A stretch of DNA of 64,000 bases, from contig CAVRZA010000002.1 of assembly GCA_963725665.1 (NCBI GenBank), positions 128,001 to 192,000 on the forward strand. Direction: 5' to 3'. A program made the translations under genes and the position numbers. The DNA is from an uncultured Actinomycetes bacterium. GTDB taxonomy: Bacteria > Actinomycetota > Thermoleophilia > UBA2241. The notes under the pieces were generated by a model. It had not been told where the DNA came from, searched no databases, and saw only the letters and a list, made by a program, of their open reading frames with translations. Shown here piece by piece: positions 21,071-22,988 of the stretch. Numbering within the stretch: the stretch's first letter is position 1; each line of letters starts with the position of its first letter.

Positions 21071-22068
21071 CACCAGTGCGCCGCATCCAGGAGGAGCACG
21101 GCATCGTGGGGCGGGACCGGGAGCTCGCCCTCTCGCTGGCCGTGCTGGCGCGGGGCAGGCACCTGCTGCTCGAGGGGCCGGTGGGCGTCGGCAAGACGAC
21201 CGTCGCACTCGCCGTATGCCGCCACCTGGGCAAGCAGACGGTGCGTGTCGACGGGGACGACCGCTACTCCGAGAGCAAGCTGACCGGCTGGTTCGACCCG
21301 CCGCTGGTGCTCAAGCGTGGGTACTCCGAGGAGTCGTTCTTCCCGGGGCCGTTGGTGCGCGCCATGCGTGAGGGGGGTGTCCTCTTCATCAACGAGCTCA
21401 ACCGCATGCCGGAGTCGGTGCAGAACGTCCTTCTGCCGGCGCTCGACGAGCGTCTCGTGATCGTGCCCCATATCGGGGAGGTGCGCGCTGCCGAGGGCTT
21501 CCAGGTGGTCGCCACGCAGAACCCAGTGGAGTACATCGCCACTGGCCACCTCTCGGAGGCGCTGCGCGACCGCTTCGAGCACGTCGCTCTCGAGTACCAG
21601 AGCGCCGAGGAGGAGGCGCGCATCGTCGCCGCCGAGACCGGCAGCGACGATGCGCGCCTCATCGTGCGGGCCGTCGCCGTCGCTCGAGCGACGCGGGCTC
21701 ACCCCGGGCTCAAGAAGGGCGCCTCGATCCGCGCCGCCATCGCCACGGTGACGATCGCCGAGGAGCTCGCCGCCGAGGGCGGCTTCGCGGGACTTGCCGC
21801 GGCGTCCGGTGCCGGCGAGCGACGCCCGGACTCGATAGCGGCCGACGACCAGGCGGAACCCCGCGGATCGGCGCCGCCGGATGACGACCTACGGCTACTG
21901 CGCCTTGCGGCTGGGGCAGCCCTGCCGACGCGCATCGAGCTCGCCGGCGACGCAGACGCGAGCCTCGACGCCGTCATCGACGATATCTGCGCGGCGGTGG
22001 CCGCCGACGCCGACGCGGCGCTGGCGGCCTTCGCGGCGGCGAGCGCCGCGGCAAGAAAAAAAGGCTGA
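21067..22068 (+). CDS. MoxR-type AAA+ ATPase (AAA_5, CbbQ/NirQ-like)
   Basis: Walker A EGPVGVGKT, Walker B variant LFINELNR, VVATQNP, LSEALRDRF. Confidence 0.9.
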   Translation: MTPVRRIQEEHGIVGRDRELALSLAVLARGRHLLLEGPVGVGKTTVALAVCRHLGKQTVRVDGDDRYSESKLTGWFDPPLVLKRGYSEESFFPGPLVRAMREGGVLFINELNRMPESVQNVLLPALDERLVIVPHIGEVRAAEGFQVVATQNPVEYIATGHLSEALRDRFEHVALEYQSAEEEARIVAAETGSDDARLIVRAVAVARATRAHPGLKKGASIRAAIATVTIAEELAAEGGFAGLAAASGAGERRPDSIAADDQAEPRGSAPPDDDLRLLRLAAGAALPTRIELAGDADASLDAVIDDICAAVAADADAALAAFAAASAAARKKG

Positions 22069-22085
22069 GCGGCGGCAGCCGCCGC
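22056..22085 (+). other. Candidate -1 frameshift signal: A7 slippery run, 6-nt spacer, 7-bp GC hairpin
   Basis: AGA AAA AAA GGC TGA followed by GCGGCGG-CAG-CCGCCGC; the -1 frame is open into the VWA ORF. Confidence 0.55.
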
Positions 22086-22139
22086 ACCGGCGTCCCGGTC
22101 AGGGAGTACCGCCCGGCTCGTCGTCCCGACACCGGGTCT

Positions 22140-22988
22140 GTGGGCCGCGGCGAGGTGCTCGCCGCCTTCGCCGAGCGCTACGGGATGACTCTCGAGGGTC
22201 TCGACGGCTGGGCGATCGCCCAGACGATCACCCGGCGTGGCGGCGCCGGTCTTGACGCCAACACGCGCGAGGTGGCCATGGGCATGGCCGCCGAGGCGGT
22301 CCTCGAGCATGCAGTGCGACTCGTCGGCCCGCTGCGCGCAGCGACCAGGCTGACGGCGGAAGCCATGATCGAGCCCCACGAGGGCGACTTCGACGTCGAG
22401 CGCACGTTCGAGAACGTGCTCGGCAAGGAGTTCCCGGAGCCCGATGACTGGGTCGTCGAGCGCCGCCGCGAGCGCCGTCAGCAGGTCGTCCTCATGATGG
22501 ACACCTCGCTTTCGATGGCCGGGCCCAACATGGCGGTGGCCGCCGTGGCGGCCGCCGTCATGGCTCTGAAGCTGCACCCGGGCGACCTGTCGCTGGTCGC
22601 TTTCGAGACAACGGCGGAGGTGCTCAGTCGTCTCGAGGATCCTGTGCCGGCCGAGTGGCTCGTGCGGCGCATGCTTGAGAGACCCTGCAACGGCTACACG
22701 AACATCGAGGCCGCGCTCGAGCTCGGCGCCATCGAGCTCGAGCGCGGTCGCAATCCACGTCGCGCGGGTCTCCTCATCACCGACGGTGTGTACACGGCCG
22801 GCGGCGACCCGCTCGAGGCGGCACGGTCGTTCACTCGTCTCTATGTCATGCTGACGGCTGACTACAAGATGAATCCCGAGCTGTGCCACGCCATGGCGAA
22901 GGTCGGCGGAGGCACCGTCTTTCACGTCGAGGACTTCGGCGAGCTACCGCGGCGCATGCTCGACGTGGCCGACCACGTGCTCAGGTAG
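22140..22988 (+). CDS. VWA-domain protein (own start doubtful; frame open from 21885)
   Basis: MIDAS MDTSLSM, YTNIEAAL, LITDG; no SD before GTG 22140. Confidence 0.87.
   Translation: MGRGEVLAAFAERYGMTLEGLDGWAIAQTITRRGGAGLDANTREVAMGMAAEAVLEHAVRLVGPLRAATRLTAEAMIEPHEGDFDVERTFENVLGKEFPEPDDWVVERRRERRQQVVLMMDTSLSMAGPNMAVAAVAAAVMALKLHPGDLSLVAFETTAEVLSRLEDPVPAEWLVRRMLERPCNGYTNIEAALELGAIELERGRNPRRAGLLITDGVYTAGGDPLEAARSFTRLYVMLTADYKMNPELCHAMAKVGGGTVFHVEDFGELPRRMLDVADHVLR

Follow-up and report, generated by a model that had tools for sequence, protein, structure and literature searches.

A probable programmed −1 ribosomal frameshift linking a MoxR-type AAA+ ATPase to a NorD-like VWA/MIDAS domain in Thermoleophilia

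The locus described here lies in a 64,000-nucleotide (nt) stretch of DNA from an uncultured bacterium of the class Thermoleophilia (assembly GCA_963725665.1, contig CAVRZA010000002.1, positions 128,001 to 192,000 of the forward strand). The whole stretch is referred to as the window and is numbered from its first letter. The locus consists of an open reading frame (ORF) for an AAA+ ATPase, which ends in a run of seven adenines followed by a stop codon and a potential hairpin of 7 base pairs (bp), and of a second reading frame in the −1 phase, which encodes a protein with a VWA domain and a MIDAS motif (Table 1; lengths in amino acids, aa). Based on the comparison with related genomes, it was concluded that the adenine run is very probably the site of a programmed −1 ribosomal frameshift of the dnaX/IS3 style, by which a single gene would give both the ATPase and an ATPase-linker-VWA fusion.

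Table 1. Coordinates of the features of the ATPase/VWA locus and of the gene preceding it, in window numbering
Feature	Position	Strand	Remarks
AAA+ ATPase ORF, 0-frame, short product	21067..22068	+	333 aa; AAA_5, NorQ/CbbQ/midasin-like MoxR type
Slippery heptamer A_AAA_AAA, X_XXY_YYZ phase	22056..22062	+	same place and phase in orthologues
Spacer GGC TGA, 6 nt, with the 0-frame stop at 22066-22068	22063..22068	+	
Putative stimulatory hairpin GCGGCGG-CAG-CCGCCGC, 7-bp stem, 3-nt loop	22069..22085	+	
−1 frame after the slip: variable linker of ~27 codons, helical N-domain, VWA domain; 308 aa	22062..22988	+	
MIDAS motif D-T-S-L-S (D121, S123, S125, VWA ORF numbered from 22140)	22500..22514	+	
HEAT-repeat protein gene	20270..21070	+	Pfam HEAT_2 5e-20

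The 3' end of the ATPase ORF reads GCA AGA AAA AAA GGC TGA, and all six lysine codons that precede the run in this ORF are AAG (21193, 21232, 21277, 21313, 21712 and 21715). The A7 tract was the sole run of six or more A or T residues within the 64-kb window and one of 29 A/T runs of at least seven residues in the entire genome (3.73 Mb, 68.4% GC). Nineteen of those 29 runs were clustered outside the window, in contig C4 at about 643-654 kb and at the start of C8; these stretches, taken as low-GC, could be foreign or mobile DNA. Both tRNA-Lys(UUU) and tRNA-Pro(UGG) were found to be encoded in the genome. A search of the Rfam database gave no hit at gathering score, the frameshift element RF01074 reaching 15.4 bits (E = 3), which is the level of chance.

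The −1 frame runs without interruption from 21885 to its stop codon at 22986-22988, and a slip at the heptamer would yield a product of 332 + 308 = 640 aa. The first start codon of this frame beyond the ATPase stop is GTG 22140, and no motif of the Shine-Dalgarno (SD) type (GGAG, GAGG or AGGA) was present upstream of it. A first-pass annotation of the same DNA, made from the letters alone, had reported the end of the ATPase gene, the AAG-only earlier lysine codons, the anomalous A7, its phase, the spacer and the hairpin, as well as a −1 frame open from 21885, a VWA/MIDAS protein and a GTG at 22140 lacking an SD sequence. All of these were recovered from the sequence.

Within the same family, the ATPase/VWA pair was detected in each of the 24 genomes searched, and 2 of 16 genomes from other families of the class had a homologue of the VWA part. 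The VWA part lay in the −1 frame at 25 of 29 loci, and two of the four exceptions also kept the cassette. Scanning a single genome per species added 79 further loci, mostly from metagenome-assembled genomes (MAGs) of Thermoleophilia and a few from MAGs of Spirochaetota or Verrucomicrobiota. The junction scan was anchored on the VWA reading frame alone. Frame calls anchored on the AAA part were wrong for eight loci (L004, L025, L036, L052, L077, L088, L106 and L111), owing to upstream indels and paralogue matches; anchoring on the VWA part settled five of them, while L036, L106 and L111 remained. Three criteria were applied jointly, namely an in-phase XXXYYYZ heptamer, a 0-frame stop at most 9 nt away and a −1 frame free of stops as far as the end of the VWA domain. 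All three held in 100 of 109 loci, which represented 82 distinct junctions after the removal of identical ones. Among the nine other loci, in-frame fusions were present in L008 and L044, which share one junction, and in the distant L027; L029, L107 and L112 were cut by a contig end, and the remaining three were L036, L106 and L111, with a further frame break. The slippery run, stop, hairpin and −1 relationship, which the first-pass annotation had named as features to look for in orthologues, were thus found to be kept across these 100 loci.

Four heptamers were recorded at the 82 junctions. C_CCA_AAA, with a run of four A's, was the most frequent (54 junctions), followed by A_AAA_AAA (20 junctions; A7 in 17, A8 in 2 and A9 in 1), A_AAA_AAG and A_AAA_AAC (4 junctions each, all A9). 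Both C_CCA_AAA and A_AAA_AAA belong to the V_VV.A_AA.R class, given as the most efficient class of motifs in E. coli in PMC4066793. In the 71 junctions that were aligned gap-free, heptamer positions 3-7, which include the four A's, the first spacer base (+7, G) and the T of the stop (+10) were 100% conserved, the 0-frame stop being placed 3 nt past the heptamer, and the flanks of the heptamer were variable, mostly below 1 bit per position. No upstream SD-like stimulator was evident in this anchored conservation profile. Outside the site, AAA accounted for 41 of the 748 codons for lysine in these genes (5.5%) and CCA for 107 of the 2660 for proline (4.0%); within it, all 74 junctions of the Thermoleophilia type used these rare codons. 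On a FastTree phylogeny of the VWA parts, at least eight changes were required for the four heptamer labels, with the starred branches forcing two to three per main type, and slipperiness was retained through the changes. Such repeated switching indicates that the signal was rebuilt repeatedly and not inherited just once.

All eight A9 junctions with A_AAA_AAG or A_AAA_AAC originated from non-actinobacterial MAGs. An A9 run immediately before the stop, with no notable hairpin, was seen in L088, L095, L096, L101, L102, L103, L105 and L110. The MAGs that carry these loci bear the labels Spirochaetota, Verrucomicrobiota or 'uncultured bacterium', and the loci formed a clade nested inside Thermoleophilia on the VWA tree; horizontal transfer or mis-binning is possible for this placement.

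Further, the folding energy of 40 nt beginning 4 nt past the heptamer was compared with that of 200 random positions in each locus. The mean value was −21.1 kcal/mol at the sites and −12.8 kcal/mol at the controls from the same loci. The sites were in the lowest 5% of their own locus in 42 of 82 cases, which comprised 18 of 20 A_AAA_AAA, 23 of 54 C_CCA_AAA and 1 of 8 A9 junctions. A contiguous stem of at least 6 bp beginning 4-9 nt past the heptamer was observed at 50 of 74 sites and at 408 of 1423 control positions (29%), and 41 of those 50 stems began at exactly 6 nt. The stems were built from 21 distinct 5' arms, for instance GCGGCGG, GCGCCCC, GCCCCC, GGGACGC and CGGCCGCCGC, and the stem of L017 extended over 17 bp.

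The inference of the first-pass annotation, a 333-aa ATPase and a fusion of ~640 aa made from one gene, was therefore strongly supported by the related genomes at the level of sequence, and programmed −1 ribosomal frameshifting was regarded as highly probable. Several observations nevertheless weighed against it. The genomes that gave the 82 junctions are related, and the junctions are not independent. L036, L106 and L111 kept the heptamer and the stop and had one further frame break between the site and the VWA part, which may be an assembly error or decay. No stem of at least 6 bp was present 4-9 nt past the heptamer at 24 of the 74 Thermoleophilia-type sites, where 8-bp covarying hairpins began 13-14 nt downstream. 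The eight A9 junctions of other phyla showed no special structure, which fits transcriptional slippage in those lineages. RNAalifold, applied to 25 junctions of mixed subgroups, returned no common structure, because the lengths of stem and loop differ between the subgroups; stem searches on each sequence with controls from its own locus were used in its place. The hairpin of the window by itself was only modestly above shuffled sequences (−24.9 kcal/mol for the 55 nt from the heptamer, z = −1.89, 11 of 200 shuffles as good). Finally, a search of sequencing runs returned no RNA run with the locus and no run with half or more of its sequence words, only DNA runs that contained a small share of them.

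Three other explanations were considered. The best of them is transcriptional slippage, in which RNA polymerase would add one A and the edited mRNA would encode a single-frame fusion; we considered it improbable. Four A's, as present in the C_CCA_AAA heptamer of 54 of the 82 junctions, are too short for such slippage, yet this motif stands in perfect heptamer phase, and the fact that the commonest heptamer is not an A-run points to a ribosomal rather than a transcriptional event. The A7 of the window would suit the polymerase, as would the A9 runs without notable structure in one relative from the class and in the eight Spirochaetota/Verrucomicrobiota junctions, and efficiency rose with the length of the A-run in chelatase genes, according to PMC3711429. 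However, the junctions of the A7 type carried the strongest hairpins at ribosomal spacing, with 18 of 20 in the lowest 5%, and both the phase requirement and the 6-nt spacer are features of ribosomal frameshifting. The A9 junctions of other phyla may use transcriptional slippage instead.

It was judged less probable still that the locus holds two ordinary genes, in which translation of the VWA part would begin on its own, for example at GTG 22140, or through termination-reinitiation, the A-run and hairpin being incidental. In favour of this, the GTG does exist, at least one possible start codon was present in the linker in 62 of 82 junctions, and MoxR ATPases and their VWA partners are usually encoded by separate genes, as stated in PMC4660213 and PMC9976466. 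In the remaining 20 junctions, however, no ATG, GTG or TTG preceded the conserved N-terminal helix of the VWA part. The candidate starts, where present, were at non-conserved positions, and an SD-like motif stood before any of them in just 13 of 82 junctions. By contrast, the linker itself was conserved as peptide (PKSL/KKSL, GRVEVRGLP and ...PLxALAxRY...LDGW), and in many loci GRVEVRGLP and the helix before LDGW preceded every start codon. Over the region that separates the slip site from the N-terminal helix, the −1 frame had a GC content by codon position of 0.84/0.65/0.89 (2546 codons), which is of the coding type. Independent initiation also sits poorly with in-phase rare-codon heptamers at 74 of 74 Thermoleophilia-type junctions, with a −1 relationship that is family-wide and with the common occurrence of in-frame fusions. 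The first-pass annotation had held that orthologues with their own ribosome-binding site and no A-run would speak against frameshifting; in the relatives, the VWA part was found to have no ribosome-binding site or start of its own.

The weakest explanation, to which we assign almost no weight, is that the frame change reflects an indel of the assembly or the decay of a pseudogene, so that the real gene would be a plain fusion (A8) or broken: homopolymers are error-prone and an MMPL gene in the window is split over three frames, but the frame relationship, stop and heptamer recur in 100 of the 109 loci, across many assemblies made independently, which makes an error at the A-run untenable, four bridging contigs contain no indel at the run, and neither the stop nor the −1 frame is lost in relatives with A8. 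These contigs, obtained from Logan and belonging to three sequencing runs, span 22056-22062 without a gap (X6 record 21 with one mismatch, X1 records 3 and 4, and X8 record 29); X6 is possibly the source sample and need not be independent. In the two A8 relatives the sequence is GGC CAA AAA AAA GCC TGA, and their extra A falls within the CAA codon, so that the stop and the −1 relationship are kept. The MMPL transporter gene occupies 22981-25154 on the minus strand in the ORFs 24753..25154, 23693..24748 and 22981..23967, of which the latter two both match Pfam MMPL; either an assembly indel or a pseudogene would account for the split. The caution of the first-pass annotation about indel errors was hence justified for the window, which does have frame breaks, and did not hold for the run itself, where the pattern kept in relatives and the gap-free bridging contigs speak against an error.

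The ATPase matched Pfam AAA_5 (1.7e-24; 86.9 bits against a cut-off of 22) and AAA_3 (1.4e-14). In a sequence search of the PDB, the best scores were obtained with midasin (5.4e-43), NorQ (4.7e-18) and CbbQ (5.4e-13), and CobS was far behind (1e-4). The protein remained below the equivalog cut-offs of GvpN (TIGR02640, 82.5 against 266.8 bits) and MadB (NF047784, 79.6 against 475). Judged by these scores, it is a member of a related but unnamed subfamily of MoxR AAA+ proteins (CbbQ/GvpN/NorQ-like, AAA_5). The label 'MoxR-type' of the first-pass annotation is narrowed here to the NorQ/CbbQ/midasin-like AAA_5 branch. The Walker B region (window ~21379-21405, ATPase residues ~105-113) reads VLFINELNR, in which an Asn precedes the catalytic Glu; the residue at this place in AAA+ proteins is usually Asp. 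The same INE was found in both paralogues of genome G013, described below.

For the −1 frame, Pfam gave VWA_CoxE (6.8e-10), and the domain was classed as VWA_CoxE/VWA_2. The MIDAS signature DxSxS...T...D was complete, with D121, S123, S125, T187 and D215 invariant in 23 aligned sequences. An AlphaFold2 model of the VWA part, built from this 23-sequence alignment, had a mean pLDDT of 90.3. The top Foldseek matches of the model were the NorD VWA domains of NorQD cryo-EM complexes (E = 3e-9, TM ~0.55-0.64), and MIDAS domains of midasin were also among the matches.

The AAA+ - linker - VWA/MIDAS layout of the ChlD type is shared by the predicted long product, and a chelatase (ChlD/BchD) identity was considered and rejected. 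The score against TIGR02031 (BchD/ChlD) was 27.4 bits with a cut-off of 499.55, and no locus in the whole genome exceeded this cut-off. CobN/ChlH (PF02514) had no match in the genome, which is 97.5% complete, when the control search was positive in 5 of 14 control genomes. With CobN/ChlH and any ChlD-level score lacking, the pair was identified as a MoxR ATPase of the NorQ/CbbQ-like kind, combined with a VWA adaptor that resembles NorD, and not as a chelatase.

Natural fusions of the two parts were common. A search with a 614-aa in-frame fusion of G013 recovered at least 398 clusters of AAA_5-VWA proteins of 580-650 aa at E <= 1e-20, named in their sources 'MoxR-like ATPase/Mg-chelatase subunit ChlD' or 'AAA family ATPase'. 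In G013 itself (L031, 3524-6583), an AAA-only gene, whose product is 80% identical to the window ATPase over residues 1-238, lies directly upstream of the gene for the 614-aa AAA-VWA fusion, which has no slippery site. This pair corresponds to the frameshift gene in a duplicated form without recoding, and its chlI-plus-chlD layout shows that both products are wanted. In G021 (L032, 3849-7665), a 624-aa in-frame fusion paralogue stands in tandem with an AAA/VWA gene of the frameshift type and a HEAT-repeat gene; such a tandem of fusion and frameshift gene may be common.

The HEAT-repeat gene of the window precedes the ATPase gene, its stop codon overlapping the GTG start of the latter (GTGA). 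At 59 of the 109 loci, a HEAT-repeat homologue adjoined the ATPase/VWA pair, in most cases on the downstream side of the VWA part; the HEAT-repeat protein may serve as client or cofactor. A 159-aa ORF that precedes the HEAT gene (19539-20018, plus strand) matched no Pfam family and had no counterpart among the 109 related loci.

We proposed the following course of events for the programmed −1 frameshift. Most ribosomes would read AGA AAA AAA GGC and terminate at the TGA, releasing the short ATPase. A fraction would pause over A_AAA_AAA as the ribosome meets the hairpin, both tRNA-Lys(UUU) would slip back by one base, and reading in the −1 frame would proceed through the linker into the NorD-like VWA/MIDAS domain, giving the ATPase-linker-VWA protein of ~640 aa. 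Such a slip probably takes place in vivo, as the conservation of the site suggests, and the two products would be made at a set ratio. By analogy, both products would co-assemble in one hexameric ring with few tethered VWA domains, perhaps one, as suggested by CbbQ6:CbbO1, NorQ6:NorD1 and midasin with its six AAA modules and one MIDAS. The frequency of the slip would then set the number of ring subunits that bear a tethered adaptor. Our best guess for the cellular role is that of a MoxR-type remodelling or metal-insertion chaperone.

More tentatively, and with more doubt than confidence, it may be supposed that the frequency is tuned to about 1 in 6, with five short chains joining a single long one in a 'split midasin', a NorQ-like hexamer with exactly one covalently tethered VWA/MIDAS adaptor. 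Recoding would then be a general route to the 6:1 stoichiometry of MoxR and VWA proteins, and the signal would be plastic, with C_CCA_AAA plus hairpin, A_AAA_AAA plus hairpin, transcriptional slippage on A9 and duplication into AAA-only and fusion genes all leading to the same two products.

To our knowledge, conserved programmed frameshifts in cellular, that is non-mobile and non-phage, bacterial genes are few, examples being dnaX, chlD, copA and csoS2. The comparative support is unusually clear in the present case, since over the 82 distinct junctions two heptamers are interchangeable and the hairpins covary. If the frameshift operates as proposed, the logic by which one gene yields a motor subunit and a motor-adaptor fusion is extended from class I chelatases to the NorQ/CbbQ/midasin-like branch of MoxR, and the system offers a testable handle on how MoxR hexamers recruit exactly one VWA adaptor. 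Annotation as two genes, or as 'AAA family ATPase' and 'VWA protein', causes the long product to be missed. A full-text search of the literature found no frameshifting described for a MoxR/NorQ/CbbQ-VWA gene, the hits being on chlD, on phage tail chaperones or on unrelated subjects, although the 146 candidate clusters of PMC3711429 could include a member.

The closest precedent is chlD, for which AAA+-only and AAA+-linker-VWA proteins are made via −1 frameshifting according to PMC3711429, PMC5009743 and PMC9227772. The same sources, together with PMC4660213, PMC9976466 and PMC13036017 on MoxR and VWA partners, bore out the background on which the first-pass annotation had drawn. The two systems share one gene with two products, an A-rich slippery site with downstream structure and in-frame fusions in related genomes. 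They differ in that the ATPase here is of the AAA_5 type (NorQ/CbbQ/midasin-like) and not ChlI-like, in that a HEAT-repeat protein is the conserved neighbour, and in that the main heptamer is C_CCA_AAA with a tight hairpin at 6 nt, whereas runs of A7-A11 are given for the chelatase genes.

NorQ/NorD and CbbQ/CbbO are the closest by sequence among bacterial ATPases, with midasin modules scoring higher, and the closest by fold for the VWA domain. PMC4660213, PMC9976466 and PMC13036017 describe one VWA protein per AAA+ hexamer (CbbQ6:CbbO1, NorQ6:NorD1) and a VWA 'finger' that enters the NorQ pore; in the searched portions of the two NorQD papers (PMC13036017 and PMC9976466), a frameshift is not mentioned. 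In contrast to those systems, no nor or cbb genes were seen beside the window locus. Midasin/Rea1 offers a further likeness, since its AAA ring, long linker and single C-terminal MIDAS domain, which docks on the ring, resemble what would form from five short products and one long product; PMC4660213 draws the midasin analogy for CbbQO too. However, midasin is one eukaryotic polypeptide of almost 5000 aa in which six AAA modules are fused, whereas the ring proposed here would be formed by separate chains. With dnaX (gamma/tau), the locus has in common a cellular bacterial gene, an A-rich heptamer with a hairpin and two forms of an AAA+ protein, as given in PMC3711429. The E. coli shift uses an upstream SD-like stimulator and results in the shorter product, whereas the shift proposed for the ATPase/VWA gene would result in the longer one.

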